Positions 4,612-20,093 of a DNA stretch of 64,000 nucleotides are shown piece by piece. The notes beneath the pieces were generated by a model. The model was not told the DNA's origin, did not search any database, and saw only the letters and a list, made by a program, of their open reading frames with translations. How positions within the stretch are numbered: the first letter of the stretch is position 1; every line of letters starts with the position of its first letter. The position numbers and the translations under genes were made by a program. Source of the DNA: Bacillota bacterium (GTDB taxonomy: Bacteria; Bacillota; Clostridia; Saccharofermentanales; Saccharofermentanaceae); the NCBI GenBank assembly GCA_036782995.1, contig DAIPXZ010000001.1:1-64000 (forward strand), in the 5' to 3' direction.

Positions 4612-5721
4612 CTAACTGGTTCTGGCGACAAAGCCAAGGTGGTCTCCGAAAACAAAAGCTGCGGATACACCAAATGCGATACTGAGCAATTTACCTTTGT
4701 CAGACATTGATTTCACCATACTGAACATCGGAACGGAATTGGCTAAATTGGCTATCATTCCCGAGCAAGCGACATCGTCTACGCCAAGCTTTTTACCGGC
4801 TTTATTCAGAGGCTTCTTGAATGCCTTTGTTATCCATTTTGCCATTGGATAAGCACCCATCAAGATAATACCGATTTGACCACAAACCAATAAAGCCTCA
4901 TCCAAATTCGTCATTCCTGTACTCTCGTTGACGGTAGACATAACACCAAAAACAGGCAAGAATATTCCGGTTATCTGCTGAACCACCGCAATTGCGGTCA
5001 ACATTGTGCCGACAATGCAGACGCCGGTACCAAAAATGTTGAAGCCTTTTATCATTGCTGTTGGTATGAACCATAACCCAAGACAGAGCAAGGCAGCAAA
5101 GATTATTACCGGGATAAGATTAATCAATATTGTGACAAAACTAATCGTATACAAAGTGATATTCATGAGTAAGCCGCCTGCGATACAGCCGAAAGGAACA
5201 CCTACCAGGCCTGCCAAAACACCGGCTGCCAGATATGGCCTGTCCTTTTTCTCGAGAATGCCCAATGCGACAGGAATTGTAAAAGTGATTGTTTGCCCCA
5301 TAACCGTTCCGAGAATCAAGCCCGAAAACATGGTCATCGTTTCATTTTTCGCCATACTTTGCGCCAAAGCATATCCACCCATATCACTGGATAAAAGAGT
5401 CGTCGCAAACATGGAGGGATCGGCACCAACAAGTGTGAAAATCGGAGTAATTATTGGCCCTAACAGCATGGAAAAAATAGGTGCGGCGGCGTATATACCA
5501 ATAAGTGCAAGACCAATCGGCCCAATGGCATTAAATCCATTATCAAATTCTTGACCGTAGCCTCTCTTGTTTCCTCGTATTTTATCGATTGCACCGATAA
5601 GCAAGAAAACCATCATTATCAGCATAATAATGGAGTTGATTGAGATGTTTTCACCAAACAGCTTCAGAGAATCAATAAAATTGTTGTTTTTTATCGTGCC
5701 AACCAGTTCACTAAAATCCAT
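4612..5721 (-). CDS. EutH-family permease (ethanolamine-utilisation-protein-H-like transporter)
   Basis: Polytopic membrane protein matching EutH throughout: ...GPIGLALIGIYAAAPIFSMLLGPIITPIF...GADPSMFATTLLSSDMGGYALA... The likely start is MDFSELVG at 5721, preceded by an AGGAGTG RBS; the ORF track's longer N-terminal extension lacks an RBS. No other eut genes are nearby. Confidence 0.7.
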   Translation of the reverse strand: MDFSELVGTIKNNNFIDSLKLFGENISINSIIMLIMMVFLLIGAIDKIRGNKRGYGQEFDNGFNAIGPIGLALIGIYAAAPIFSMLLGPIITPIFTLVGADPSMFATTLLSSDMGGYALAQSMAKNETMTMFSGLILGTVMGQTITFTIPVALGILEKKDRPYLAAGVLAGLVGVPFGCIAGGLLMNITLYTISFVTILINLIPVIIFAALLCLGLWFIPTAMIKGFNIFGTGVCIVGTMLTAIAVVQQITGIFLPVFGVMSTVNESTGMTNLDEALLVCGQIGIILMGAYPMAKWITKAFKKPLNKAGKKLGVDDVACSGMIANLANSVPMFSMVKSMSDKGKLLSIAFGVSAAFVFGDHLGFVARTS

Positions 5722-6051
5722 CTTGTCACTCCTATAATGCATATATTGTGCTGTAAATCTGTTATACAGATATTTATTCATTGAATAGTGAGTTTATGTA
5801 ATGAATGATTCTGATTGTTGCAGGAGTTGCACCGAGTTTGCACACAGACAGCTTTCGTCTGTTGATGCATGTAGAAAAATACGACCTTCAATGGTTAATG
5901 AATACGGAAAATATCGCGAGCTACTTTTCGTGCTCGGCATTGAATTTGTTAAGTACTTTTAATATATCATAATATAAATTATTCTACAAGGAATTTACTT
6001 TTGCGTTCTTCGCATTACTTCTCATTTGCTAAAAGAATTCTTCAACGCAAA

Positions 6052-8217
6052 TTAACTGTGCGACACATAGCCACCATACACATCATCCATGCTCACGGGC
6101 TCTCCCGTTTTGAGCAAATCCAGTAGCCATTGGCCGTCATCGCCTTCACTTAGAAGGAATCCGTAATAGGCAATATAGGGTGCGCGATAAATCAGATATT
6201 GTCCACAAGTGCCGACAAGCTCAAATGGCTCGGCAATGTAGGTCGGAATCGTTGCGTATGCGTCTTCGGTCGTAATCATTACGACTTCGCCTTGATAATC
6301 TGATGCATTGTAGTATCGTAAGGTGTCGCCCCATAGGGGAGCACCGGCAAAGCCATCATTTACCGTCCGATATGTACGAGTTTCGTCAATCACGCGCAAG
6401 TTGCGAGCAAGCACGAGGTTTTCATCACCGACCACATAGACCATCGGGGTATCATATTGGTCAACGATGTCAGCAAGAATCTCCAGCTCCTCTACGTTGG
6501 TGTGATTGCGGCAGAGAGAATAATAGGAAATGCCGTTCGAACAAATGATACCGAGTATGACGCACAATATGATGGTTTTAGAGAAGAGGCGGTCTTTCGG
6601 CAAGTCTTCGATGTATTGTCCGACAAGCAGGAGCATGCCCATGAAGATAAAAATCACGTAACGCGTCTCGAACACTTCCGACCCATATGTTGTATACGAA
6701 AAAAGTAAGATCGCTATATTGGAGAGAATGAGAATAATCATGGAAAAGAGTGGCGTATCGACATCTTCTGCTTTAAGGTGTTTCTTTGTCGCGATGATGC
6801 TTGCAACGAGAATGAATAGACCGACGGCAAAGAAAACACAATATGCGATTCCTTTCAGTGAAATAATCGATATGTCCGTAGTACTTGGGAACATGGATGT
6901 GATGTCAAAGTATCCGAATAGCAGACCTTTAGCATTGCTTACGACTTCGGTTTTGGCTATCCATGCGATACTGGTATCGCGACTTTCGACGTGAAAAAAG
7001 CGAGCGGCTATGACTTTGCCTACTACTATCATGATACCCGTAATGGCAATGAACCATGTTTCGCGACAGAATACGGATTTGATATCATTTTTAACGAATG
7101 CACGTATTACGATATAGAGTGCAAATGGCGCGACAGTCATGATGAGCATAAATAATCCCGTGGAAAGGCCTGTCAGAAACGAAAGAACAAGACAAATAGC
7201 TGCCCATGGGAGTATTTCACGCATTTTTGCTTTGCGCGCCAGACGGGTCACGACTAAGGCGAATGCCAAAAGGAGTATGACACGATAGCTGTACGAGGCC
7301 ATGAATCCATATACCATGGCAAAATAATTCAATGCATTGTTGGTGTCGAAGGTCGTAAAATAAGGCGTTATGATGAGCGCGATTGTAAGAAGACGTGAAG
7401 ATAGCTGCCACTTCATTTCGCGTGTGAGTCCGGCAACGGCGGCAACAATAATTCCGGTCGTTAAAATGTTGCATAGACCATATGCCGTGAATACGTCACC
7501 AATCGCTCCATAGACGAGCCATGCCATAACGACAGAAGAATCCATTCCGAGGCCGGTCTGATAGGACCAATCATTCGGGAAAAGAGTCTTTTGGTTCCAT
7601 AATTCCTTAACAAAGAGATAGCATGACGATGCATCGAAGCCCAAATGGTTTCGAAGCATGGTGAGATTTACGAATACAATGAGAGCGAGTTCGATTCCGA
7701 CGACGCATAGGAGTACGATGTCGATTGGTTTTAGCTTTTGACGCAGGGTTTGTTCTGCGGCTGTCGTCGCGTTTTCTTTGCGCTTAAATGCCCAGAATTT
7801 ATTGAGCAAGAAGTTCATCGGGATGGTAATCACGAGGTTAATCAACGGCGCAATAAGGTCGGAGATATGGAGACATTCGACCCACACGAACAAAAGCACT
7901 GTGCTGAGAATGAATGTGAAGCCATAGGACGTAAATGATTTGGCATACGCCGTGATGTGTTCTTTGAAGGTTTTCTTTTGGCCGTCTGAAAAGATGAATC
8001 GGCTGTTCCAAATATAGGCATTGGTGACGCTAATCACAAAGCCTAAGATATTGCCGATTTGGTAATGCCAGCCGAATGCGAGGACGCATAAATAGTAGAT
8101 GCCTTGTGAAATCAACGTATTCGAAACACCAACCAAACCGAACTTGATGAATTGCATCAAGGGCTTGATCTTTGGGTGGTTCATAATTTGCGATAACCAG
8201 TTTGTCATTTTACTCAT
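6052..8217 (-). CDS. GtrA-like flippase module fused to a large multi-TM (GT-C-like) glycosyltransferase with a C-terminal extracytoplasmic domain
   Basis: The N-terminal ~150 aa is a GtrA-family 4-TM module (FIKFGLVGVSNTLISQGIYYLCV...NKFWAFKR). About 12 further TM helices and a ~170-aa soluble C-terminal domain follow. The start overlaps the ddhC stop (ATGA), indicating translational coupling. Confidence 0.7.
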   Translation of the reverse strand: MSKMTNWLSQIMNHPKIKPLMQFIKFGLVGVSNTLISQGIYYLCVLAFGWHYQIGNILGFVISVTNAYIWNSRFIFSDGQKKTFKEHITAYAKSFTSYGFTFILSTVLLFVWVECLHISDLIAPLINLVITIPMNFLLNKFWAFKRKENATTAAEQTLRQKLKPIDIVLLCVVGIELALIVFVNLTMLRNHLGFDASSCYLFVKELWNQKTLFPNDWSYQTGLGMDSSVVMAWLVYGAIGDVFTAYGLCNILTTGIIVAAVAGLTREMKWQLSSRLLTIALIITPYFTTFDTNNALNYFAMVYGFMASYSYRVILLLAFALVVTRLARKAKMREILPWAAICLVLSFLTGLSTGLFMLIMTVAPFALYIVIRAFVKNDIKSVFCRETWFIAITGIMIVVGKVIAARFFHVESRDTSIAWIAKTEVVSNAKGLLFGYFDITSMFPSTTDISIISLKGIAYCVFFAVGLFILVASIIATKKHLKAEDVDTPLFSMIILILSNIAILLFSYTTYGSEVFETRYVIFIFMGMLLLVGQYIEDLPKDRLFSKTIILCVILGIICSNGISYYSLCRNHTNVEELEILADIVDQYDTPMVYVVGDENLVLARNLRVIDETRTYRTVNDGFAGAPLWGDTLRYYNASDYQGEVVMITTEDAYATIPTYIAEPFELVGTCGQYLIYRAPYIAYYGFLLSEGDDGQWLLDLLKTGEPVSMDDVYGGYVSHS

Positions 8218-9551
8218 GAAATGGCCTCAATAATGGTTTGCGCCATGTAATCAATCATGGCGTCCGTCATGCCCGGATAGACTCCGACCCAGAAGGTGTC
8301 ATTCATGATTTGGTCAGTGACAGAAAGGTCGCCGACGACGCGATAGCCTTCGCCGCTCTTTCTCATCTCGTCAAAGCAAGGGTGACGGGTGAGGTTGCCG
8401 GCAAACAGCATTCTTGTCTGTACGCCCTTCTTTTCTACGTATTGGACGACTTCATTTCTCGAAACGCCCGGTTTGCAAGTAATCAGGAATCCGAACCAGC
8501 TCGGGTCGGCGTTTTCAGCAGCAACCGGCAGAATGAGCTTATCTTCGTAAGGAAGGAGCGCCGCCTTTAGGCGTTTGAAGTTCTCTTTTCTCTTCTCGAC
8601 AAAGGTCGGGAATTTCTGAAGCTGTGCGCATCCGATTGCCGCCTGCATATCAGTGGCTTTGAGGTTATATCCAAAATGAGAATAGACATACTTGTGGTCG
8701 TAACCAAGCGGCAGCTCACCGTATTGCTTGTCAAAGCGATGGCCGCAAAGATTATCCATACCAGACGGGCATACGCAATCACGGCCCCAGTCACGCATGG
8801 AGCGGGCAATCTTATTGAGAAGCGGATCATTAGTGTATACGGCACCGCCCTCACCCATAGTCATGTGATGCGGCGGGTAGAAGCTCGATGTGCCGATATC
8901 ACCGATGGTTCCTGTGAAATATTCTTTTCCGTCGAGCGTGTACTTAGAGCCTAAGGCGTCGCAGTTGTCTTCGACGAGGAAGAGGTTATGCTTTACACAG
9001 AAAGCCTTGACGGAAGCAAGGTCAAACGGATTGCCGAGTGTGTGAGCAATCATGACGGCCTTTGTTTTCGGAGAAAGGGCCTTCTCGAGCATTTCAACAT
9101 CGATATTATATTGCGGAATGGTAAGGTCAACGAATACCGGAATTGCACCATATTGAATCATTGGTGTAACGGTTGTCGGGAAGCCGGCAGCCACTGTGAT
9201 TACTTCGTCACCGCGCTTTACAGCACGTTCGCCGAGAAGCGGCGAGGTCAAGGTCATGAATGCAATAAGGTTCGCAGAGGAACCGGAATTTACCAGCGAG
9301 CAGTACTTGATGCCAAGATAGTTGGCGAGTTTCTTTTCAAATTCATCGGTATAGCGACCGGATGTGAGCCAGAATTCGAGCGAAGAATCGACAAGATTGA
9401 GCATTTCGTCGCTGTTATATACTCGGGAAGCATACGGAATGCGGTTCCCCGGAGTAAAGGGCGGTTTTTGATTGTGATAAGTATCACAGTACTCCTTCAC
9501 CATCTCGAGAATGGATTCTTTTGCTTGTTGTTCTGACATGTTTTCAAACAT
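8214..9551 (-). CDS. ddhC: CDP-6-deoxy-D-xylo-4-hexulose-3-dehydrase (E1; RfbH/DdhC), PMP-dependent with Fe-S motif
   Basis: 445-aa DegT-fold protein in which the aminotransferase Lys is replaced by His (SFYPPHHMTMGEGG). This substitution is diagnostic of E1 dehydrases. It also has the Cys cluster DWGRDCVCPSGMDNLCGH. A GGAGGAG RBS lies 7 nt upstream of the ATG. Confidence 0.9.
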   Translation of the reverse strand: MFENMSEQQAKESILEMVKEYCDTYHNQKPPFTPGNRIPYASRVYNSDEMLNLVDSSLEFWLTSGRYTDEFEKKLANYLGIKYCSLVNSGSSANLIAFMTLTSPLLGERAVKRGDEVITVAAGFPTTVTPMIQYGAIPVFVDLTIPQYNIDVEMLEKALSPKTKAVMIAHTLGNPFDLASVKAFCVKHNLFLVEDNCDALGSKYTLDGKEYFTGTIGDIGTSSFYPPHHMTMGEGGAVYTNDPLLNKIARSMRDWGRDCVCPSGMDNLCGHRFDKQYGELPLGYDHKYVYSHFGYNLKATDMQAAIGCAQLQKFPTFVEKRKENFKRLKAALLPYEDKLILPVAAENADPSWFGFLITCKPGVSRNEVVQYVEKKGVQTRMLFAGNLTRHPCFDEMRKSGEGYRVVGDLSVTDQIMNDTFWVGVYPGMTDAMIDYMAQTIIEAIS

Positions 9552-10647
9552 GGTTATTCTCCTCCCAATCGGCGGTAAATGCCGAAATTTGTTGATTCAT
9601 TATTTCATTGACGGATTGACCGTCACGATAGACCTTTGCCCATTCGACAGAAGCCGATACAGCCTCGTTAATATGCCATGTTGGCTTCCAGCCGAAAGTC
9701 TTCTTAATCTTTGAGCAATCGAGCTTCAGGAAGTTCGCCTCATGCGGGCCGCCCACAAATTGGTTCTCCCATGTCATGCCCTCGCCCCACGCGTCGCAGA
9801 ACAGATTGACCAAATCGCCGGTTGTGACACAATCGCAATCGTCTGGTCCTACATTATAGTAGTCGGCAAAAGACTTATCTTCATACTGTTTCTTTGCAAT
9901 GAGCAAATAGGTAAAAAGCGGCTCGAGGACATGCTGATATGGCCTTGTCGAATGTGGATTACGCACGACGATGGCATGCTTTGCCAAGGCAGCGCGGATA
10001 GAGTCCGGGATGATGCGGTCGACGGCAAAATCACCGCCGCCAATGACATTACCTGCACGTGCCGTCGAAATCGCAACGTCACGATCGGCAAAAAAAGACA
10101 ATTTGTAGCTATGTGTGACGAGCTCCGAACAGGATTTACTGTTCGAATACGGATCAAATCCGTCGAGCGGGTCAATTTCACGATAGCCCCATTCCCATTC
10201 GTTGTTATGGTAGACCTTATCCGTCGTAACATTCAAAAAGGACTGCACCGTATCGCTCATACGAACACATTCCAAAATATTGACCGTGCCCATGACGTTC
10301 ACTTCGTATGTATATGCGGGGCGAACGTAAGAGTCACGAACAATCGGCTGTGCCGCCATGTGAATGACGATTTCCGGTTTTGCCGCCTGAAAAGCCTTTG
10401 AAAGAGCATCTGTATCGCGGATATCTCCGATGACAGAAGTCATTTTTTCATCAAGCTCGAGCATGCTAAATAAAGACGGCTCCGTCGGCGGATTCAGTGA
10501 ATATCCGGTCAATTCGGCGCCTGCGTCGACCAATATCTTCGAGAGCCACGCGCCCTTAAATCCGGTGTGTCCAGTCAGGAACACTCTTTTCCCTCTGTAA
10601 AAATCCAGCATTACCATGTTTTCCATGGGGCATTTCCGGATGCCCAC
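9544..10647 (-). CDS. ddhB: CDP-glucose 4,6-dehydratase (RfbG/DdhB)
   Basis: The N-terminal sequence carries the GKRVFLTGHTGFKGAWL Rossmann motif, and the YxxxK SDR region is present. The true start is probably an internal ATG at ~10611-10617, where TAATG overlaps the ddhA stop; the track's N-terminal extension has no RBS. Confidence 0.9.
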   Translation of the reverse strand: MGIRKCPMENMVMLDFYRGKRVFLTGHTGFKGAWLSKILVDAGAELTGYSLNPPTEPSLFSMLELDEKMTSVIGDIRDTDALSKAFQAAKPEIVIHMAAQPIVRDSYVRPAYTYEVNVMGTVNILECVRMSDTVQSFLNVTTDKVYHNNEWEWGYREIDPLDGFDPYSNSKSCSELVTHSYKLSFFADRDVAISTARAGNVIGGGDFAVDRIIPDSIRAALAKHAIVVRNPHSTRPYQHVLEPLFTYLLIAKKQYEDKSFADYYNVGPDDCDCVTTGDLVNLFCDAWGEGMTWENQFVGGPHEANFLKLDCSKIKKTFGWKPTWHINEAVSASVEWAKVYRDGQSVNEIMNQQISAFTADWEENNHV

Positions 10648-11384
10648 ATTTCCTCCAGTTCCATTTTATCGCGCTGTGTATCCATGCACTTCCAGAAGCC
10701 TTTATGCTTAAAGGCGTCCAATTGACCTTCCTTGGCCAGCTTTTCGAGCGGAGCTTTCTCGAAAACCGTCTTGTCGCCTTCGATATAATCGAAAACCTTC
10801 GGCTCGAGAATCATGTAGCCGCCGTTGATTAAGCTGCCATCCGCTTCGGATTTCTCACGGAATGATTGAATACATGCATTGCTCGCGATATCCAAAACAC
10901 CAAAACGCTGGCCGACGCTAACCGCCGTCAACGTAGCAATATGATTGTTTTTCTTATGAAATGCGATTAATTTTTCGATATTTACATCGGAAACACCGTC
11001 ACCATATGTCAAAAGAAACGGCTCTTCGCCGATATAGCGAGAGATTCTCTTGATTCGACCGCCGGTCATAGTATTGAGGCCGGTGTCCACGACGGTTACG
11101 CGCCACGGTTCGGCAAAGTTCGAATGGATTTCCATTTTATTCTCTGCGGTAAAATCGAAAGTGATATCCGAACGGTGGAGATAATAGTCAGCGAAAAACT
11201 CCTTAATCACGTGCTGTTTGTATCCACAGCAAATGATAAATTCATTAATGCCGTAATTCGATATGGTCTTCATGACATGCCATAACATCGGCATGCCTCC
11301 GATTTCGATCATAGGCTTCGGCTTCAAGTGGCTTTCTTCGGAGATACGTGTTCCGAACCCGCCTGCTAATATGACTGCCTTCAT
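10611..11384 (-). CDS. ddhA: glucose-1-phosphate cytidylyltransferase (RfbF/DdhA)
   Basis: MKAVILAGGFGTRISEESHLKPKPMIEIGGMPMLWHVM... is the canonical G1P-cytidylyltransferase N-terminus. The start was moved to the ATG at 11384 (RBS GAGGTGAAGGA); the upstream extension in the track is non-coding-like. Confidence 0.9.
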   Translation of the reverse strand: MKAVILAGGFGTRISEESHLKPKPMIEIGGMPMLWHVMKTISNYGINEFIICCGYKQHVIKEFFADYYLHRSDITFDFTAENKMEIHSNFAEPWRVTVVDTGLNTMTGGRIKRISRYIGEEPFLLTYGDGVSDVNIEKLIAFHKKNNHIATLTAVSVGQRFGVLDIASNACIQSFREKSEADGSLINGGYMILEPKVFDYIEGDKTVFEKAPLEKLAKEGQLDAFKHKGFWKCMDTQRDKMELEEMWASGNAPWKTW

Positions 11385-11518
11385 GTCCTTCACCTCGTTC
11401 TTTTCGCACTTCACAGCTATGAAAATGCAAGTGCTTCTATTCGTAAAATCCCGAAAATCGGGCATTTACCACCAGTGTGAACCATCTCACGTATTATACG
11501 AGCATATGGTTTCGATTG

Positions 11519-12691
11519 TCAATTTTCCCCGACAGAATCTTTACTTTCCTTGCTGTCCTTGTCTTTCTTGTCGGCAGATTTTTTCGTTGTTTTCTTTGTG
11601 CTCTTTGGCTTCTCGGGTTTGGATTGCTCCTCTTCTTTATCCGTCTTCACGGCCTTGGTTTTTCTGACCTTGGTCGGTTCTTTTGCCAAAAGGTTGGTTT
11701 TCAATGGTGCCACGATTGCTTCTGCTTTCGCTTCAATCTCCGCAGACACGGTTTGCTTATCAAAGTTGATTCGTTCTTCTTCGATGACAAGCGGACGTTT
11801 CATCATACGGTTATTAATGGCAAGAATGTACTCGCCGAGGAAGCCGATGAAAAAGATTTGAACAGAGCCTAAGATAATAACGGCCAATAGAATCGGCAGG
11901 TTACCCGCCGGGAATGAATTCCACATACAAAGCTTCAAAATGAAGTATACAAGACCGGCTACGAGGCTCAAGGCGGCACATAGTGCACCGGCGATGGTCG
12001 CGATGCGAAGACCGACCTTGGTATACGATGTTATCGAGAGCATAGCCGCATCATAGAGTCGATAGAAGTTATTAGAGCTCTTTCCGCGTTCGCGTTTCGG
12101 CTGATCATAAGGAATGTCCTTGCGTTTCCAGCCCATCTCGGCAACAATACCGCGCAAGAACGGGGTTGGGTCATCGAGGCGACGCAGCACATCAATAAAC
12201 TCCTTATCGTAAAGGCCGGAGCCTGTGAAATGTTCAATTTGTTCGACGTCAGAAAGCTTCTTGATTAGCTTATAGTAGCAGGTGCGAAGGAAACGGAGAA
12301 TTTTGTTTTCGTGACTCGTCGTCTTAATTCCGATGACGATTTTATAGCCATTTTCCCACTCGCGCACGTATTTAACGATATTTTCAATCGGGTCTTGGAA
12401 ATCGCAAACCATAGTAACCGTGCAATCACCTGTCGTTTGCAAAAGGCCGTAGTATGGCGAATTGAATTGTCCGAAGTTGCGGACGTTAAAGATTGTCTTG
12501 ATATGTGGATTTTTATGGCAGATTTCACGAAGTAAAGTGCGTGAGCTATCTTTCGAATCGTTATCAATAAAGATGAGCTCCCAATCGTAGTTTGCCAGCT
12601 CGTTGGAAAAAAGATTCGTTATCGCTTCACTCATCGGAATGATATTTAATTCCTCGTTATAACACGGAATTAAAATGCTGATTTTCTTCAT
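11519..12691 (-). CDS. family-2 glycosyltransferase, GtrB/DPM1-like polyprenyl-phosphate sugar transferase with C-terminal 2 TM and Lys/Glu-rich tail
   Basis: The GT-A N-terminus ILIPCYNEE...FIDNDSKDSS carries DxD-type motifs. Two C-terminal TM helices (IAGALCAALSLVAGLVYFILKL / LPILLAVIILGSVQIFFIGFLG) are typical of GtrB/CsbB-type enzymes. It ends in a ~70-aa K/E/T-rich low-complexity tail. Confidence 0.8.
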   Translation of the reverse strand: MKKISILIPCYNEELNIIPMSEAITNLFSNELANYDWELIFIDNDSKDSSRTLLREICHKNPHIKTIFNVRNFGQFNSPYYGLLQTTGDCTVTMVCDFQDPIENIVKYVREWENGYKIVIGIKTTSHENKILRFLRTCYYKLIKKLSDVEQIEHFTGSGLYDKEFIDVLRRLDDPTPFLRGIVAEMGWKRKDIPYDQPKRERGKSSNNFYRLYDAAMLSITSYTKVGLRIATIAGALCAALSLVAGLVYFILKLCMWNSFPAGNLPILLAVIILGSVQIFFIGFLGEYILAINNRMMKRPLVIEEERINFDKQTVSAEIEAKAEAIVAPLKTNLLAKEPTKVRKTKAVKTDKEEEQSKPEKPKSTKKTTKKSADKKDKDSKESKDSVGEN

Positions 12692-12701
12692 AACTGTATC
12701 C

Positions 12702-13619
12702 TCACTTCTCTGTCTTAATCCACTCTAGCGTTTGTTTGATACCTTCTTCAAAGGATGTTTGCGGTGTGAAACCAGTATCGGCAGTCAGCGTATCAATATC
12801 GGCACACAGGTACATGACTTGTTTGTCATAATAGGGCACTTCGCCAAAACCAATGTCCGCTTGTGGTGCGGTCAAATCCCGTATTGTCGTGATATAGTCT
12901 CGAAGCGGCTGCACTCGCCCTCCACCCAATGCATAAACGGCGCCGTCCGGAGCCTTTTCGCAAGCAAGCATAAAGGCACGTGCCGCGTCATCGCAGTATA
13001 AATAGTCCCACATCTGCTCGCCCTTGGTGTATGTCGGGCGTTCCCCTGCGAGAAGCTGACGGATACCAGACATCACCATCGTATGCTCACCGTCATGTGG
13101 CCCGTATACGCTCAATATACGCATCCAGATATGACGAATATGCAAAGCATTACATTCCACTCGTGTCATCTGTCCTGCGCACAGTTTCGCAATACCATAT
13201 CCCGTCTCCGGAAAAGTCGGCGTGTCAGGGGCAAGCTTCGTGCCATCCGGTACTCGACCGTACTCCGCCTGACTTCCCGCGCCAATAAAAACTTCACATC
13301 CGATACGTGAAGCCAATCGAACCGCTTCGACTGCCGCACGCGCATTATCGAGCTGCAGGGGCATATCATTGCGTGCGTCACCATGTGTGCCGCCCCATGC
13401 CAAATGGAAGAAAGCATCGTATTTTTTGTCCGTATGAAAAGACGAAAATGCGCTCATTTCCACCGCCTCGGTGGTCACCAAGGGATGTTTCGGAATGCCG
13501 GCATTGCGGGTAGAAGATGGGTTCGTTAAAACCAATACCTCAACCTCATTTCGAATCAGTTCGCGAATAATCGCGAGCCCAATCATGCCTGTCGCTCCGG
13601 TAATAACCGCTCTTTTCAT
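12702..13619 (-). CDS. NAD(P)-dependent epimerase/dehydratase-family (SDR) sugar-nucleotide reductase, YerF/paratose-synthase-like
   Basis: It has a GATGMIGLAI Rossmann motif and YGIAK (YxxxK). Its position directly downstream of the ThDP enzyme within a CDP-dideoxyhexose cluster supports the reductase call. Confidence 0.75.
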   Translation of the reverse strand: MKRAVITGATGMIGLAIIRELIRNEVEVLVLTNPSSTRNAGIPKHPLVTTEAVEMSAFSSFHTDKKYDAFFHLAWGGTHGDARNDMPLQLDNARAAVEAVRLASRIGCEVFIGAGSQAEYGRVPDGTKLAPDTPTFPETGYGIAKLCAGQMTRVECNALHIRHIWMRILSVYGPHDGEHTMVMSGIRQLLAGERPTYTKGEQMWDYLYCDDAARAFMLACEKAPDGAVYALGGGRVQPLRDYITTIRDLTAPQADIGFGEVPYYDKQVMYLCADIDTLTADTGFTPQTSFEEGIKQTLEWIKTEK

Positions 13620-13622
13620 GAA

Positions 13623-15455
13623 TCAGTTTGTCTCCAATCGTTTTGCTGCTTCATATTCTTCTCGCTCGAGGAACGGGAACATGTCATCGAGTGATGGTGA
13701 TACGATTTTGCCGTCCGGAAGCACCTTCGAAGAGAGCTTCGGCGAGAAATTCTGCTTCGGGTCAACAACGACTTCACAGAAGATTGGGCCTTCTGTTGAC
13801 AAGAGCTTCTCGGTAATCTCCTTTACGTCGTCCAAATTGTCGAGACGGACAAACGGAATATCATAGGCCGCGGCGAGCTTTTCGGGTGACGGGAACGTAA
13901 GCCCCGAGCCCACACCAATGCCCAAAAGCGGCGGTTGGAAGAAGTTCGTCTGTGTTTGACGGATGGAATGATATCCCTCGTTATTTAAGTAGACGATTTT
14001 TATGTTCATTTTGTTGCATCCAACGGTCGCCAATTCCTGCAAATTCATTTGGAAGCTGCCGTCTCCATCGATGCAAATGACGCGCTTGCCTTTATTCGCC
14101 ACAGCGGCGCCAATGGCGGCCGGAAAACCGTAACCCATGGCGGCGCAGCCAGAGTTCGTGTAAAGGCGTTGATGTTCTTTTACTACGGCGGATTGGAAGG
14201 TCATGACGCAGGCGCTGCCATTACCGCAAATCACGGTCTCATCGTCGGACCAGAGCTTACTGAATTCCGTGACAAAAGCGTATGGATTCATCGGTTGTTT
14301 AACCGCATAGTATTCCGGCATGGTGGCAGGATATTGAAGGAAAACTTTTCTTGCGTGGTCGAGCCAAGCCTTATGATCAGCGTTCTTCGCCGCGCCGATT
14401 GCATAGGTATTCGTCGATTTTTCAAGCGCACGAAGCAGTGAAGGAATCACATCGCCGCAATTTGCATGAATCGGCATATCTGGTGTGACGGTCGGTTTCT
14501 TGAGCTCGTTCTCGTCGATATCAACGACAATTTTGAAGGCATCCTTCGCAAAATCACGATAGTTATAGCTGATGATTCGGATGTTCATACGGCATCCAAG
14601 AACAAGTAACAAATCGCAGCCCTGAACGACAAAGTTTCCACCACGAACACCAATGGTACCCGGACGGCCGCAAAAGCAAGGATTTGCATCTGCTATCAAA
14701 TCGTTGGAGTTCCATGCAGTGACAACCGGAATGCTAAGCTGCGAAACCAGTTTGCTTAATTCCTCGCGCATCCCGGAGAGGTGAACTCCCGTGCCAACGA
14801 GGATACACGGCTTCTTGGCCATAGCAATTTTGGAAAGAATCTCAGGTGTGAGGTTCTCATCATATGTTGGATTGAGTGGTGTATCCAGTTCGTCAGGAGA
14901 GAACCCTGCGAGCTCATCGGTTTCAACAATCGCCGCTTGGATATCGAGTGGGATATCCAGCCATACCGGACCCGGGCGGCCGTTTGTAGCAAGATAGAAT
15001 GCTTTTTCCAAATGATAACGAATGGACGTCGGTTCGGTAATCATAACCGCGTATTTCGTCATATTCTTTACGGAGTCGACAATATTGAATTCTTGGTCGC
15101 CGAGCTGACGAAGCGGAACCGGAGTCGACCATATTGTCGTTTCCCTTTTCACTTGGCCGGAAAGGACAAACATCGGGATAGAATCAAGCCATCCGCCCAT
15201 GACGCCCGTGATGGCGTTCGTCCCGCCGGGGCCGCTCGTTACGCAAAGCGAAGCCATTTTTCCAGTCATACGTGCATAGCTTTCCGCCGCAATGGCCGAT
15301 GCCTGCTCATGGTGGTTATAGATGGTATGAAGTCCGGGATGATGGCCAAGCGCATCGTTCAGGTGCATGGCACCGCCGCCTGTGACGGTGAAGTTGTCTT
15401 CGATTCCTTGCGCAACAAGAAAATCCGCAATGAGATGGGCAATTTTTTGTTTCAT
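13623..15455 (-). CDS. thiamine-diphosphate-dependent enzyme of the acetolactate-synthase/YerE family (putative sugar C-branching enzyme)
   Basis: 610 aa with the three ThDP-enzyme domains: N-terminal Pyr domain (...HHEQASAIAAESYARMTGKMASLCVTSGPGGTN...), a central domain, and a C-terminal PP domain (GDGSFQMNLQEL). It is embedded between the ddh genes and the SDR reductase, as YerE is in yersiniose clusters. Confidence 0.75.
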   Translation of the reverse strand: MKQKIAHLIADFLVAQGIEDNFTVTGGGAMHLNDALGHHPGLHTIYNHHEQASAIAAESYARMTGKMASLCVTSGPGGTNAITGVMGGWLDSIPMFVLSGQVKRETTIWSTPVPLRQLGDQEFNIVDSVKNMTKYAVMITEPTSIRYHLEKAFYLATNGRPGPVWLDIPLDIQAAIVETDELAGFSPDELDTPLNPTYDENLTPEILSKIAMAKKPCILVGTGVHLSGMREELSKLVSQLSIPVVTAWNSNDLIADANPCFCGRPGTIGVRGGNFVVQGCDLLLVLGCRMNIRIISYNYRDFAKDAFKIVVDIDENELKKPTVTPDMPIHANCGDVIPSLLRALEKSTNTYAIGAAKNADHKAWLDHARKVFLQYPATMPEYYAVKQPMNPYAFVTEFSKLWSDDETVICGNGSACVMTFQSAVVKEHQRLYTNSGCAAMGYGFPAAIGAAVANKGKRVICIDGDGSFQMNLQELATVGCNKMNIKIVYLNNEGYHSIRQTQTNFFQPPLLGIGVGSGLTFPSPEKLAAAYDIPFVRLDNLDDVKEITEKLLSTEGPIFCEVVVDPKQNFSPKLSSKVLPDGKIVSPSLDDMFPFLEREEYEAAKRLETN

Positions 15456-15492
15456 AAGTCTTCTCTCCAGTGTATGAAATGCGTATTGACGC

Positions 15493-17103
15493 TTATTCGA
15501 CGAGGTCTTTCTCGTAATATGATTCGGTCACAAAAGTAATGTCCAGACCGTTTCTTACTCGAGCGAGACTCTTCTTCGTATCTTCATTAATCTCGATGGC
15601 CTTCGTCTTACTGAAGCTGTGTGCCATGTTGGGATTGACATAATCTGGTGTTTCCGCCGTCGTATATCCATCAAAGCCCGCAAGTGCGATGCTGTTTACA
15701 CCGATTTTTGACGAAAGCTTCAAAAGCATAATCAGCGGATTATCTACAATCATGGCATCTTCGTCAAGAAGACTGCTGTAATTTAAGGTGTAATCGAAAT
15801 CACCAAGTGCACGTGTGACATTACTCGTCGCAATCGTGCGAATCGAATCCGGAATCATGGAGAGCTGTGATGACAATTGAACATAGCGTTTCGCATTGCT
15901 CATGACGATATAGTCGACACAATAGCTCTTCGGGAGAAAGTTCACGGCAATTACTACCGGGTGATTGGCCTCGATATAGGCATTAACCCGATCTTTATCA
16001 TCAATGACACGATTGCCCGGCCCCAAGAGCAGGATATTCTTTCCGGAAAGCTTGCGTGTCAGGCGTTCGATGGCCTTGCCGTCGTCGCATTCATTTTTTT
16101 GGTAATTAACATAAAGCTCCTCGGCGTATTTCTGATCGTAAAGAAGCTTCTTGTCAGGCGTAATGGAGTCCAGGATTGCATTGATGTCCTTCACGGATAG
16201 CTTCTTTTTGTTTGTTAAATAGGAAACGTAATTCGGGTGGCAGTCATTCGATGCCGAGAGGAAAAACTTAAAGCTGTATCCCCACGGTGTCTTCTTATAG
16301 AAATCAAGCATCGTTACGTCGATGGCCTCGAGTAACTGACTCTTCACGTATTTCTTGCCGCAATAATCATTCATGTAGGTAGCAAGGAGCTCAATTGGCG
16401 CATTGCCGGCGCTCTTGCCCATGCCATAGAGAGTGCCGTCAATTAACAGAGTACGGTCGACTTCATTTTGAAGAAGCTCAATGCAATTTGCAAAAGCGAG
16501 CTGAAAATTGTTGTGGGAGTGATATCCGATGGCTACCGACGGCTTCAATTTCGCATCTGCCATCTGGAAATAATGTTGGAGCTTCTCTTTATGGAGAAGG
16601 CCGTATGTGTCTACCAATGAAAAAGCAAATGGTTCGAGGTCATTTACGAGCCCCATCAGTTCATCAAAATCTTCATCACTATATGCCGTGATGGACACCG
16701 CTTGCGAAAAAACTTGGTATCCCAACGCCTTAAGCTGCTTACAGTATGCAATCGCATCGTGCATGATTTCTTTCTTAAAAATCACGCGAATACCATCAAG
16801 GAAGCAGTCTTTGCAAGGCATAATATTCGAAATATCACATGTGCCGTAGTCAATCATACCGACAACCATCGTGTTGCCCTTATTCAAATGACCATAGATT
16901 TTATTCACCGACAAGGTGTCCGGCATAATGCTACGGTTAATATCGAATTCACGACGGTCATCAAGGAAACCGACTTCGATGACCTCAAGATTGGCTCCAA
17001 TGATACGCTCGAAAATATTGACCATATTGTTGTTGCCAAATGCCCAATCGTTGACGTAACCGCCATCACGCAACGTGCAATCAAGAAGTATTTTATTGCC
17101 CAT
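15493..17103 (-). CDS. HMGL-like (DRE-TIM aldolase / pyruvate-carboxyltransferase-type) domain fused to a C-terminal Rossmann-like domain of unknown function
   Basis: The N-terminal LLDCTLRDGGY...GYHSHNNFQLAFAN matches the HMGL-like aldolase family (4-hydroxy-2-oxovalerate aldolase / isopropylmalate-synthase type). The C-terminal ~230 aa (KNILLLGPGNRVID...IALAGFDGY) is not recognised. This is the first gene of the sugar operon. Confidence 0.6.
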   Translation of the reverse strand: MGNKILLDCTLRDGGYVNDWAFGNNNMVNIFERIIGANLEVIEVGFLDDRREFDINRSIMPDTLSVNKIYGHLNKGNTMVVGMIDYGTCDISNIMPCKDCFLDGIRVIFKKEIMHDAIAYCKQLKALGYQVFSQAVSITAYSDEDFDELMGLVNDLEPFAFSLVDTYGLLHKEKLQHYFQMADAKLKPSVAIGYHSHNNFQLAFANCIELLQNEVDRTLLIDGTLYGMGKSAGNAPIELLATYMNDYCGKKYVKSQLLEAIDVTMLDFYKKTPWGYSFKFFLSASNDCHPNYVSYLTNKKKLSVKDINAILDSITPDKKLLYDQKYAEELYVNYQKNECDDGKAIERLTRKLSGKNILLLGPGNRVIDDKDRVNAYIEANHPVVIAVNFLPKSYCVDYIVMSNAKRYVQLSSQLSMIPDSIRTIATSNVTRALGDFDYTLNYSSLLDEDAMIVDNPLIMLLKLSSKIGVNSIALAGFDGYTTAETPDYVNPNMAHSFSKTKAIEINEDTKKSLARVRNGLDITFVTESYYEKDLVE

Positions 17104-17289
17104 ATCTACACCCCGTTATTCGGTAATTCATTCGTTACATACTGCTAAAATTGTACAACAGATTTGTATATTATCCAACACAAAAAACGAGGTGATACGT
17201 CGCATTTTGCCGTTGTATCTTTCAATAAATTTGGCACATTTCACATAGAGACACGGACAGGAAATGCTTTTCTCGCGCGGAGAATAATA

Positions 17290-18270
17290 TCACTTCTTCG
17301 TTTTCTCCTGCTTGGCTTCAGGGTTTCGTTCTCCTTGTAGGAGTTTTGTCGTTGAAAATACTCGAACCGCGTCCCAAAGCTCTCTTCGCCTTGTCGATTG
17401 TAAATGTGGGAATGCACGCAGGAAACGCTTCTGTTCTTTTCCGAGTGCGGCGTATAGTGTGCGCAACCGGCCCTCAAGGGATGCTCTCTGTTCTTCGTCG
17501 TCTGATTTATTCCGGATTTCATCAAGATACTCCTTGGCTTCTTCAATTCGAAGCTTCGCCCCATCGATTCGTTGCCTTGTTCCTTCGGAAAGAGCGTCTT
17601 TCTGATCCTTCATCGCCGCCACAAGAACATCTTGCTTCTCCTTCACGGTTTCCTTCGTCTTTTCCGCCTTGGCAAGTACGGTCAATGTGCGATCAGCAAC
17701 ACCCGCTCCGATTTTGTCGGAAACGTTGTGTAGTGCCGTCGCCACTTCCTGAATTTGCGCAATACGACGATTCATCTTGACGACTGCCAATACTGTCGCG
17801 ATGAGGTCTGCGAGGAAAACGGCACCAAAACCGCTGTTAATAATCCATAGCACGTATTCCGGAAGCGGGTTCACAGCTGCATTGATAATCGGATGTACGA
17901 CGTCGACAACGAGGACACATGCGAGACCCCAAAGAATGGAAAACGAAAGGCAAATATATCCGCCAAGATTGAACTTTTTATCGGAGTAATCCCACCATGT
18001 TTGGTGAAACAGCTTCTTCATTAGGAACCCCCCAACGAGCTCGACCGACGTGGTTAATAAACAAGATACGAGGAAAAGTAATGCCAGATTATCCTTGAAA
18101 GGATTAATTACAAGAAGAACAAGATTGACACCAAATCCGTAAATCGGGCAAACCGGTCCGAACAAGAATCCACGGTTCACGAATTTGCCTTCTTCCAAAG
18201 CCGCATAAGCAACCTCGGTGCACCAGCCGATAAAAGCGTAAACAAAAAAGAATAGTACAAACTTCGCCAT
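17290..18270 (-). CDS. DUF1113-type ('putative ABC-transporter type IV') membrane protein with long coiled-coil/charged C-terminal tail
   Basis: The N-terminal FFVYAFIGWCTEVAY motif and 4-5 TM helices are present. The C-terminal ~150 aa is K/E/R-rich and helical. Confidence 0.55.
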   Translation of the reverse strand: MAKFVLFFFVYAFIGWCTEVAYAALEEGKFVNRGFLFGPVCPIYGFGVNLVLLVINPFKDNLALLFLVSCLLTTSVELVGGFLMKKLFHQTWWDYSDKKFNLGGYICLSFSILWGLACVLVVDVVHPIINAAVNPLPEYVLWIINSGFGAVFLADLIATVLAVVKMNRRIAQIQEVATALHNVSDKIGAGVADRTLTVLAKAEKTKETVKEKQDVLVAAMKDQKDALSEGTRQRIDGAKLRIEEAKEYLDEIRNKSDDEEQRASLEGRLRTLYAALGKEQKRFLRAFPHLQSTRRRELWDAVRVFSTTKLLQGERNPEAKQEKTKK

Positions 18271-18289
18271 CGTTTCTCTCCCTAATCAT

Positions 18290-18345
18290 TATTTATTCAT
18301 TATATCGCATGATTCATGGTAAAATACACGCATGAATCAAGGAGG
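18290..18345 (+). promoter_or_regulatory. promoter with extended -10 (TGgTAAAAT) overlapped by inverted repeat CATGATTCATG...CATGAATCA, upstream of the RR/HK operon
   Basis: The sequence cgCATGATTCATGgtaaaatacacgCATGAATCAagg lies immediately upstream of RBS AAGGAGGGG and the ATG at 18354. Confidence 0.35.
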
Positions 18346-18353
18346 GGAAATTC

Positions 18354-19025
18354 ATGTATCGTATTTTTGTTGTAGAGGATGATGAAATCATCGCAAAATC
18401 ATTGGCATCTCATTTGGAGAAATGGAATTACGAAGTCATTTTAGTAAATGATTTTTCTAAAGTAGCTGAGGAATTCGTTGCCGCAGAGCCACATTTGGTG
18501 CTCCTTGATATCGTCCTTCCCTTTTTTAATGGTTTTCATTGGTGCACTCAGATACGCCAAATCTCAGATTTACCCATTCTTTTTCTCTCGTCGGCATCGG
18601 ACAACATGAACATGGTTATGTCGATGAATATGGGCGCTGACGATTTTGTTGCGAAGCCCTTTGATTTGAACGTCCTAACGGCAAAGATTCAGGCACTTTT
18701 ACGCCGCTCCTATTCGGTTACACAAACGATGAATGTCATCTCTCATGGTGGCCTTCTCCTGAATCTCTTAGACAATACGCTTGAGTCTAACGGGCAGAAA
18801 ACTGACCTTACCAAGAACGAATTTAAGATTTTGCAAACGCTTCTCGAACAAGCCGGTCGGATTGTATCTCGCGAAGTATTGATGGAGCGCCTCTGGGAAA
18901 GTGACAGCTTCGTCGACGACAATACGTTGACCGTCAATATGACACGCCTTCGCAAAAAACTACGTGAAATCGGGCTTCCCGATTTCGTCAGCACAAAGAA
19001 AGGACTCGGATATATCATTGACTGA
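18354..19025 (+). CDS. OmpR-family response regulator (BceR-like)
   Basis: A receiver domain (VVEDDEIIAKSL...LLDIVLP) is followed by a winged-helix trans_reg_C domain (...TVNMTRLRKKL...GLGYII). Confidence 0.9.
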   Translation: MYRIFVVEDDEIIAKSLASHLEKWNYEVILVNDFSKVAEEFVAAEPHLVLLDIVLPFFNGFHWCTQIRQISDLPILFLSSASDNMNMVMSMNMGADDFVAKPFDLNVLTAKIQALLRRSYSVTQTMNVISHGGLLLNLLDNTLESNGQKTDLTKNEFKILQTLLEQAGRIVSREVLMERLWESDSFVDDNTLTVNMTRLRKKLREIGLPDFVSTKKGLGYIID

Positions 19026-20058: not shown

Positions 20059-20093
20059 ATAAAAAACACATTTGAAAAATAAGGATTGTTTTT

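Follow-up and report, generated by a model that had tools for sequence, protein, structure and literature searches.

A clostridial gene cluster predicted to couple the synthesis of a CDP-activated branched dideoxy sugar to a Gtr-type lipid-carrier module

Introduction

The yersiniose A pathway of Yersinia pseudotuberculosis is encoded by ddhDABC-yerE-yerF together with wzx and a glycosyltransferase (GT) gene, and ddhD is always part of the ddh module in Yersinia and Salmonella (PMC5399914). Clusters that combine an aldolase with the YerE-like enzyme ErwE, the reductase ErwF and ddh genes were described by Steitz et al. (2022) as making long acyl-branched sugars such as erwiniose, caryophyllose and 'gastriose' (PMC9306805). 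Here we analyze an eight-gene cluster (positions 6052-17103, minus strand) in a 64,000-nucleotide (nt) stretch of DNA, hereafter the window, from an uncultured, gut-type Bacillota bacterium of the Saccharofermentanaceae (Clostridia; assembly GCA_036782995.1, contig DAIPXZ010000001.1, positions 1 to 64,000). This cluster probably serves to make a cytidine diphosphate (CDP)-activated, C-branched 3,6-dideoxy sugar and to link it to a surface polymer by way of a lipid carrier.

The window cluster resembles the erwiniose cluster of Pectobacterium atrosepticum (ErwI, ErwE, ErwF and ddh; PMC9306805) in holding a DRE-TIM-type pyruvate aldolase, a YerE-like thiamine diphosphate (ThDP)-dependent carboligase, an NAD(P)H reductase and the genes for CDP-4-keto-3,6-dideoxyglucose in one cluster. 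However, it has neither the acetaldehyde dehydrogenase ErwJ nor ddhD (E3), its aldolase belongs to another subfamily of ~535 amino acids (aa) with an extra C-terminal domain, and its host belongs to the Bacillota rather than to the Gram-negative bacteria. While erwiniose is transferred onto an O-unit by a Leloir GT, in the window we predict a hand-over to a Gtr-type lipid-carrier system. With the yersiniose A pathway the window shares orthologs of ddhA, ddhB and ddhC, including the E1 histidine and Fe-S cysteines, and the placement of a reductase gene right after that of the ThDP enzyme. In Yersinia, however, ddhD is always present and there is no aldolase, whereas the window has an aldolase and no ddhD. 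Yersinia also uses Wzx and a soluble GT to put the sugar on the O-unit, unlike the Gtr-type module of the window, and the gene order differs in that the genes for the ThDP enzyme, a short-chain dehydrogenase/reductase (SDR) and a GT2 come before ddhABC in the window.

The second module is reminiscent of Gtr-type systems such as GtrA/GtrB/GtrX of Shigella and Salmonella phages, CsbB/GtcA/YfhO, GacI/J/K/L, ArnC/ArnE-F/ArnT and PgfS/PgfM, with which it shares a GT2 enzyme with two C-terminal transmembrane (TM) helices, a GtrA-family module and a GT-C-fold transferase. Although those systems draw on uridine or guanosine diphosphate (UDP or GDP) sugars, a CDP-sugar donor is predicted here. The window also differs from them in the covalent fusion of GtrA to the GT-C domain, in a GT-C domain without a Pfam family, and in a long charged tail on the GT2.

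Results

In our listing of open reading frames (ORFs), the interval 6052-17103 is tiled exactly by eight ORFs on the minus strand. The genes, the two domains of the last gene and one promoter-like site are as follows.

15493..17103, minus strand: HMGL-like aldolase, 536 aa, first gene of the cluster (PF00682, 77 bits; DRE-TIM residues)
13623..15455, minus strand: ThDP-dependent carboligase, YerE/ErwE/JanthE-like, 610 aa (three TPP domains; JanthE match)
12702..13619, minus strand: extended SDR, 305 aa, predicted side-chain ketoreductase, YerF/ErwF analog (PF01370, 125 bits)
11519..12691, minus strand: GT2 polyprenyl-phosphate glycosyltransferase, GtrB/ArnC/PgfS-like, 390 aa (alignment to 5EKE and ArnC)
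11493..11522, minus strand: sigma-70-type promoter-like site TTGACA-18-TATAAT (12/12 match)
10611..11384, minus strand: DdhA, glucose-1-phosphate cytidylyltransferase, 257 aa (TIGR02623)
9544..10611, minus strand: DdhB, CDP-glucose 4,6-dehydratase (TIGR02622)
8214..9551, minus strand: DdhC/E1, CDP-6-deoxy-L-threo-D-glycero-4-hexulose 3-dehydrase, pyridoxamine phosphate (PMP)- and [2Fe-2S]-dependent (NF011936 RfbH)
6052..8217, minus strand: GtrA::GT-C fusion gene, 721 aa, last of the cluster
7771..8217, minus strand: GtrA domain, residues 1-149 of the 721-aa fusion, predicted lipid-linked-sugar flippase module (PF04138)
6052..7770, minus strand: GT-C-fold membrane glycosyltransferase domain, residues 150-721 of the fusion (predicted structure)

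The initial annotation had described eight tightly packed, co-directional minus-strand genes with ATGA and TAATG overlaps, and this description holds: the genes are separated by gaps of 37, 3, 10 and 134 nt, ddhC and gtrA overlap in an ATGA, and ddhA and ddhB in a TAATG provided that ddhB starts at the in-frame ATG at 10611. Non-coding DNA extends for ~185 nt ahead of the first gene and ~270 nt past the last. The same annotation counted eight genes correctly but named only seven, leaving the first, the aldolase, undescribed. It also placed the Ddh genes ahead of ThDP-SDR-GT2, which has to be corrected, as the order of transcription is aldolase, ThDP, SDR, GT2, ddhA, ddhB, ddhC and gtrA::GT-C. 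Of the Yersinia-like order that it proposed, the adjacency of the ThDP gene and the reductase gene stands, and is the Pectobacterium pattern as well, but the remaining order does not.

The cluster was further described as one 11-kb operon, for which the coordinates and the packing are correct. However, the sole perfect match to TTGACA-18-TATAAT within 5700-17500 lies at 11522-11493, between GT2 and ddhA, where it overlaps the GT2 stop codon. It is separated from ddhA by a leader of ~105 nt that carries a CCCGA/TCGGG hairpin and is moderately structured (fold z = -2.3), and Rfam gave no match in the cluster at E <= 1, this leader included. The site and leader together (11380-11522) could be an internal promoter or attenuator that puts the ddh/GT-C half under separate control. 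Because a perfect internal promoter match precedes ddhA, a single operon is uncertain, and the cluster may consist of two transcription units.

The deoxysugar core of the cluster was identified with curated models, and all three Ddh identities that were proposed initially score above the equivalog cutoffs. DdhA matches TIGR02623 with 397.5 bits (cutoff 300.25), DdhB matches TIGR02622 with 440.2 bits (cutoff 278.45) and DdhC matches NF011936 RfbH with 718.6 bits (cutoff 423). The DdhA match begins at residue 28 of a longer ORF, and the gene callers agree on a protein of 257 aa from the ATG at 11384. The longest ddhB ORF starts at a GTG at 10647 while its TIGR02622 match begins at the ATG at 10611, which is probably the true start.

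DdhC aligns over its full length with E1 of Y. pseudotuberculosis (3BCX, E = 2.8e-158), and the alignment bears out the earlier claim of an E1 3-dehydrase with His in place of Lys and Fe-S cysteines. In the alignment of DdhC SFYPPHHMTMGEGG to wild-type E1 SFYPAHHITMGEGG (3BCX) and to the H220K mutant SFYPAKHITMGEGG (3BB8), DdhC retains the equivalent of His220 ('YPPHH'), which replaces the Schiff-base Lys of aminotransferases. The DdhC segments 'EDNCDALG' and RDCVCPSGMDNLCGHRF align with 'EDCCDALG' and RDCYCAPGCDNTCKKRF of E1, and Cys occurs at all four positions of the [2Fe-2S] ligands, which we take to be C193, C251, C253 and C261 in E1 numbering. Leaving the reductant aside, DdhABC very likely synthesize CDP-4-keto-3,6-dideoxyglucose.

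We searched species-representative genomes with the fusion protein and retrieved 62 loci, all matching in the GtrA domain only. With all eight window proteins as tblastn queries, 61 of these loci were matched, and the counts given here are of these 61. Homologs of ddhA and ddhB were found in 35 loci, the YerE-like ThDP gene in 32, ddhC in 30, a close GT2 homolog (49-72% identical) in 29 and the aldolase in 9. The cassette genes are all co-directional and usually ordered ddhA-ddhB-ddhC-gtrA-[aldolase]-ThDP-SDR-GT2, so that the window layout is a cyclic permutation of the usual order with GtrA fused to the terminal transferase. The cassette recurs in ~30 species, mostly gut or rumen Clostridia such as Oscillospiraceae, Lachnospiraceae, Acutalibacteraceae, Solibaculum intestinale, Butyrivibrio crossotus and Cellulosilyticum, and single metagenome-assembled genomes (MAGs) of Akkermansia, Eggerthellaceae and Spirochaetia carry it as well. 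The cassette of S. intestinale CLA-JM-H44 (L006) lacks the aldolase and that of Lachnospiraceae bacterium HCP1S3_C2 (L039) has it; the B. crossotus record (L025) is a metagenome bin. No homolog of the window's GT-C family was found in the 62 loci, where other GT-C families take its place: GT87 in 8 loci, GtrII in 7, PMT_2 in 6 and YfhO in 6. Such varying partners fit the Gtr-type pattern, in which different acceptor-specific terminal transferases work with a common lipid-sugar synthase and flippase. From the gene neighborhoods, the recurring cassette with its varied GT-C partners supports a Gtr-type three-component system that would be fed by a CDP-sugar.

Several loci carry variants of the cassette. 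Seven lack ddhC (L010, L022, L027, L028, L039, L047 and L056 in our numbering) and are predicted to make a 6-deoxy rather than a 3,6-dideoxy sugar. In five of them (L010, L022, L027, L047 and L056) the ThDP gene has a classical SDR (~220 aa) and a 3-dehydroquinate synthase (DHQS)-like gene in its vicinity, and often YfhO too. The SDR and DHQS-like pair is also found in L072 and L077, both with ddhC, and is thus not tied to the loss of ddhC; its product may be another side-chain donor. At L054 (4100-8211), ddhABC and an SDR resembling abequose synthase (32% identity to that of Salmonella) adjoin GtrA with no ThDP enzyme, an arrangement in which a Gtr-type system would receive an unbranched 3,6-dideoxyhexose. 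Two Lachnospiraceae MAGs (L073 and L074, 3700-17730) encode aldolase-HAD-ThDP-SDR-DdhB-DdhC together with GtrA, a LicD-family protein of 650-750 aa and a PAP2/GDPD protein, without a GtrB-like GT2. In this variant LicD may pass the CDP-sugar on as a sugar-phosphate.

The ThDP enzyme of the window matches all three TPP domains (PF02776, PF00205 and PF02775) and has the canonical ThDP-binding motif GDG-X24-NN. Its closest solved relative is JanthE of Janthinobacterium (8RPH; residues 2-604, E = 1.6e-108, 367 bits), ahead of plant acetohydroxyacid synthase (AHAS; E = 1e-70, best AHAS 242 bits) and PpYerE (5AHK; E = 5e-63). JanthE has been described as YerE-like (PMC12188165, PMC12247030), although its ThDP motif is an unusual CDG (PMC12247030) where the window enzyme has the canonical GDG. 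We also considered whether the gene encodes an ordinary acetolactate synthase and rejected this, as the acetolactate synthase equivalogs score far under their cutoffs (best AHAS 331 bits versus 538), JanthE is the closest relative, no small-subunit gene is present, and the gene is conserved in sugar cassettes. The YerE-like assignment made initially thus stands. The ThDP gene adjoins an SDR in 32 of the 61 loci and is co-conserved with ddhABC in 26. By analogy with these relatives, the enzyme is predicted to add an acyl branch at C-4 of the CDP-4-keto sugar.

The SDR gene lies directly downstream of the ThDP gene in the window. Its product (PF01370, 125 bits) is 22% identical to Salmonella abequose synthase, and a homolog of at least 40% identity occurs in 24 loci, there after the ThDP gene. 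Since the addition leaves a tertiary alcohol at C-4, the SDR would be limited to the side-chain carbonyl, as in YerF/ErwF, or to another position on the ring. These data suggest that ThDP-dependent branching at C-4, followed by reduction of the side chain, is likely.

The first gene of the cluster encodes a two-domain aldolase with an N-terminal DRE-TIM (HMGL-like) domain, in which the DCTLRDGG motif and the H-x-H metal ligands ('YHSHNN') align with DmpG and the catalytic Arg and Asp are present. Its AlphaFold model has a predicted local distance difference test (pLDDT) score of 87, and the top Foldseek matches are 3DXI together with DmpG, HsaF and AmnG (E = 1e-10 to 5e-13). The protein is predicted to work like the DmpG/BphI/ErwI family, yet it is no ortholog of BphI or ErwI. 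Members of its own family that were found through aldolase homology alone also adjoin ThDP, SDR and ddh genes (in Desulfosporosinus metallidurans and a Lachnospiraceae MAG). Further evidence that the aldolase belongs to a membrane-linked pathway comes from L077 (10001-12097), where a natural GtrA::aldolase fusion of 698 aa (P0273) lies in a complete ddhABC-ThDP-SDR-DHQS-GT2-YfhO cluster.

Because the combination of aldolase, ThDP enzyme and reductase matches the published scheme (PMC9306805), the branch is probably longer than two carbons (C2), and of the erwiniose rather than the yersiniose type. By analogy with that scheme, it is about an even bet that such a longer branch is supplied by the aldolase. 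For a yersiniose-type sugar, the ThDP enzyme alone would instead add a C2 branch taken from pyruvate, with reduction to follow, and the aldolase would be accessory or unrelated. In 23 of the 32 ThDP-bearing cassettes the aldolase is missing while the ThDP enzyme and SDR are kept, which implies that this pair is self-sufficient for branching, and JanthE, the closest solved relative, accepts pyruvate (PMC12247030). However, the aldolase is the first gene of the window cluster, 37 nt upstream of the ThDP gene, the independently sampled members of its family adjoin ThDP/ddh genes, and in a tree of the ThDP enzymes the window enzyme groups with the aldolase-linked homologs L018 and L030. In the erwiniose system, moreover, the adjacent aldolase accompanies a ThDP enzyme, ErwE, that takes 4-hydroxy-2-oxo acids and rejects pyruvate (PMC9306805). 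We therefore regard a yersiniose-type product as unlikely, and favor a branch that involves the aldolase.

The C-terminal domain of the aldolase (residues ~320-536) takes the place of the communication domain of the DmpG/BphI/ErwI type and is strongly conserved, with invariant LLLGPG, SN.KRY, ATSN, DN and AGFDGY motifs. Neither Pfam (E <= 1) nor a PDB profile search gave anything significant for this domain, and Foldseek gave a low-ranked match to SteA; the likeness to SteA and thiamin-pyrophosphokinase (TPK) is weak. The layout of the motifs may resemble that of CMP-sugar-binding GT42/MAF (DUF115) domains. One might then suppose that this domain binds CDP and that the aldolase acts on the nucleotide sugar itself, with the DRE-TIM domain adding pyruvate enolate to the sugar carbonyl and the ThDP enzyme processing the resulting alpha-keto acid. 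The strong conservation of the domain (invariant GPG..., SN... and AGFDG motifs) and its weak likeness to SteA/TPK-type nucleotide-binding folds speak for this reading, but no significant match to nucleotide-sugar-binding families was found, cassettes without the aldolase still hold the ThDP enzyme and SDR, and the order 'aldolase after branching' was tested and rejected for ErwE (Steitz et al., PMC9306805). Such a route, and the shewanellose-like CH2-CO-COOH branch that it would leave, therefore both seem improbable to us, and we retain an aldolase that acts on small substrates ahead of the ThDP enzyme.

The GT2 enzyme aligns with Synechocystis GtrB (5EKE; residues 3-304, E = 3e-37) and with ArnC (residues 1-306, E = 1e-27), both alignments covering its two TM helices (233-251 and 267-285), which are C-terminal to the GT-A catalytic domain. 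This is the GtrB-like GT2 with C-terminal TM helices that had been proposed initially. It is under the cutoffs of the available equivalogs (PgfS NF047588, 170 versus 500 bits; ArnC, 112 versus 529 bits). Residues 305-390 (11519-11777) form an 85-aa Lys/Glu/Ser-rich, low-complexity cytoplasmic tail that is missing in the cassette-linked homologs (310-350 aa).

We propose that this GT2 likely moves the CDP-sugar to undecaprenyl phosphate, a donor that is read from synteny, as the cluster encodes no other glycosyltransferase and the GT2 subfamily tracks the pathway: homologs are 49-72% identical to the window protein when linked to the cassette and only 25-29% in loci without it. To our knowledge, all characterized GtrB/ArnC/DPMS relatives use UDP- or GDP-sugars, and it could be argued that GT2, GtrA and GT-C are an ordinary UDP-Glc/UDP-GlcNAc side-chain system, with the CDP-sugar being used by an unlinked Leloir GT or a LicD-type phosphotransferase. 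The internal promoter between GT2 and the ddh genes, and the L073/L074 pathway with LicD and GtrA but no GT2, would be in keeping with this. Yet in at least 24 species the GT2 is retained together with ThDP-SDR and runs in the same direction, the same split in identity separates cassette from non-cassette loci, the nearest GtrA sequences lie almost all inside ddh cassettes, and no other transferase is encoded in the cluster. We consequently give little credence to a separate UDP-sugar system and continue with a GT2 that takes the CDP-sugar.

The last gene encodes a complete GtrA domain (PF04138, 82.4 bits versus a gathering cutoff of 26.1; model positions 1-117 of 117, residues 25-144), a basic linker and a multi-TM domain of ~570 aa, in agreement with the initial description of GtrA fused to a multi-TM GT-C-like transferase of ~550 aa. 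Elsewhere, its nearest GtrA homologs are stand-alone proteins of 129-214 aa inside ddh/ThDP cassettes. GtrA also occurs fused to other partners, namely GT87, DUF6044 and the aldolase. The possibility that the window fusion is an assembly artifact was rejected, as an identical 721-aa protein recurs on 5 or more contigs, with three of its occurrences traced to three different samples.

The C-terminal part of the fusion has ~13 TM helices and a C-terminal extracytoplasmic alpha/beta domain, and its AlphaFold model, built on 40 family members (pLDDT 90, predicted template modeling score 0.89), gives good support to a GT-C membrane fold. GT-C enzymes carry a catalytic acid after TM1, in the first extracytoplasmic loop, and here an invariant Asp, D195 ('GFDAS'), directly follows the predicted TM1, with the near-invariant D226 next; D195 is a candidate counterpart of ArnT D55. 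The domain itself has no Pfam match, although 2 of 40 family members weakly match DUF6541; the family profile found no PDB sequence, and the domain could not be assigned to described sequence families (PMT_2, YfhO, GT87, GtrII and others). A word-indexed search and a genome scan gave matches in GtrA only, from which the C-terminal 570 aa could have been taken for an orphan, but an exhaustive search found a family with 532 cluster representatives, most of them 530-690 aa long and stand-alone. Of the five contexts of stand-alone members that were informative, four have a GT2 of ~315 aa next to the gene; two of these four have GtrA in the neighborhood too, and nucleoside diphosphate (NDP)-hexose 2,3-dehydratase pathways occur in two contexts. 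At L063 and L078 (P0015 and P0024), the stand-alone member lies beside a GtrB-size GT2, NDP-hexose 2,3-dehydratase, a GFO-type ketoreductase and an SDR, which suggests lipid-carrier transfer of 2,6-dideoxy sugars too. For the window protein, GtrA-assisted flipping followed by GT-C transfer to an extracytoplasmic acceptor is likely.

A lone gene for the ethanolamine permease EutH (4612-5781, minus strand) lies directly downstream of the cluster, with no other eut gene among the neighboring ORFs. A related contig (L065, 9127-15731) has extra genes at this EutH flank, for a GGDEF/EAL protein, an LRR_5 surface protein and an HMA protein, that are missing in the window, so the downstream flank is variable between related assemblies. 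Upstream (17290-22650) are genes for a CmpB-like type IV ABC-transporter component, an OmpR-type response regulator and histidine kinase, a MATE transporter and an Mbeg1-like protein. At L079, a stand-alone GT-C member likewise has an Mbeg1-like gene as its neighbor, which is possibly a coincidence.

Discussion

We established for this cluster the gene content and families, the catalytic residues of E1 and of the aldolase, the GT-C fold and the conserved synteny, and we propose the following pathway. DdhA would make CDP-glucose and DdhB CDP-4-keto-6-deoxyglucose, from which DdhC (E1) would strip the 3-OH with electrons from an unlinked donor such as ferredoxin or flavodoxin, yielding CDP-4-keto-3,6-dideoxy-D-glucose. 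The HMGL-like aldolase would join pyruvate and a small aldehyde to a 4-hydroxy-2-oxo acid, the YerE/ErwE-like ThDP enzyme would decarboxylate this acid and place the acyl unit on C-4 of the keto sugar, and the SDR would reduce the side-chain carbonyl. The product would be a CDP-4-C-(hydroxyalkyl)-3,6-dideoxyhexose nearer to erwiniose than to yersiniose. The GtrB-like GT2 would then move the sugar off CDP and onto undecaprenyl phosphate, flipping of the lipid-linked sugar would fall to the GtrA domain, and the fused GT-C domain would hand it to a cell-wall glycopolymer or surface protein. In this scheme we infer what the aldolase makes, how long the branch is, where the electrons come from, that the GT2 takes a CDP-sugar and what the acceptor is.

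Several observations weigh against this pathway. A tblastn search with E3/DdhD of Salmonella (annotated as CDP-6-deoxy-delta-3,4-glucoseen reductase) gave no match at E <= 1e-3 in the 64-kb window and ~75 loci. Pfam scans of the ~330-aa ORFs in the window and a search for conserved extra families in the related loci were also negative for E3/DdhD, and no ferredoxin-reductase-type ORF was present among the neighbors scanned. Because no E3/DdhD was found, 3-deoxygenation hangs on another reductant, and E1 must take its electrons from a donor that is not orthologous to E3. In an anaerobe this could plausibly be a general ferredoxin or flavodoxin, and SpnQ, an E1 homolog, is a precedent for such an electron supply. 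The aldolase reaches only 64 bits with the 4-hydroxy-2-oxovalerate aldolase model TIGR03217 (cutoff 286), has an extra C-terminal domain of ~215 aa with a Rossmann-like predicted fold (15493-16150), and has no gene for an acetaldehyde dehydrogenase (ErwJ/BphJ analog) beside it in the cluster. In the tree of ThDP enzymes, those linked to an aldolase are spread over several clades rather than forming one, so donor specificity cannot be read from this phylogeny. We also know of no GtrB-family enzyme that uses a CDP-sugar, and, given the strong internal promoter, the two modules may be regulated apart. Finally, the source is an uncultured MAG, from whose genes the pathway is predicted.

The three-step logic of the initial annotation, in which the sugar is made, loaded on a carrier and flipped, and then attached, is supported by the protein families, the predicted GT-C structure and the synteny in ~30 other species. 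Its yersiniose-type product is revised here on account of the aldolase. The accompanying statement that branched dideoxy sugars are known essentially from Gram-negative O-antigens alone was too narrow, since acyl-branched sugars have been described in mycobacterial lipooligosaccharides and Streptomyces antibiotics (PMC9306805, PMC4753412). For Bacillota surface glycans it holds as far as our literature search reached: branched-chain dideoxy sugars in Clostridia were not among the matches listed. Nor did the search return work linking CDP-glucose with GtrA, or combining dideoxyhexose, GtrA, undecaprenyl, YerE, Lachnospiraceae and CDP-glucose. Each module is of a known kind. What appears to be undescribed is the coupling of the two, the implied use of a CDP-sugar by a GtrB-type enzyme, the lack of an E3, the Pfam-less GT-C family with its GtrA fusion, and the breadth of the cassette in gut Clostridia.

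We tentatively suggest, as a possibility that we would not yet call probable, that a surface polymer of many gut Clostridia carries acyl-branched (di)deoxyhexoses derived from CDP-glucose. This would involve a GtrB-type subfamily that is the first with a CDP donor, an E1 that operates without E3, in the window lineage a flippase fused to a GT-C of an undescribed family, and an aldolase-made branch that would be the longest reported for the Bacillota. If true, the donor range of GtrB-type polyprenyl-phosphate glycosyltransferases would be widened to CDP-sugars and there would be an E3-independent route for E1 3-deoxygenation in anaerobes. Two large unannotated families would also gain a function, namely the ~535-aa 'aldolase catalytic domain-containing protein' and the Pfam-less GT-C family with its 532 cluster representatives. 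There is also a demand for YerE-like enzymes, and for the aldolases that partner them, in the biocatalysis of tertiary alcohols. In Salmonella, Yersinia and mycobacteria, 3,6-dideoxyhexoses and branched forms of them act as immunodominant epitopes, and the display of related sugars by abundant gut commensal Clostridia would bear on cross-reactive antibodies, phage receptors and host recognition.

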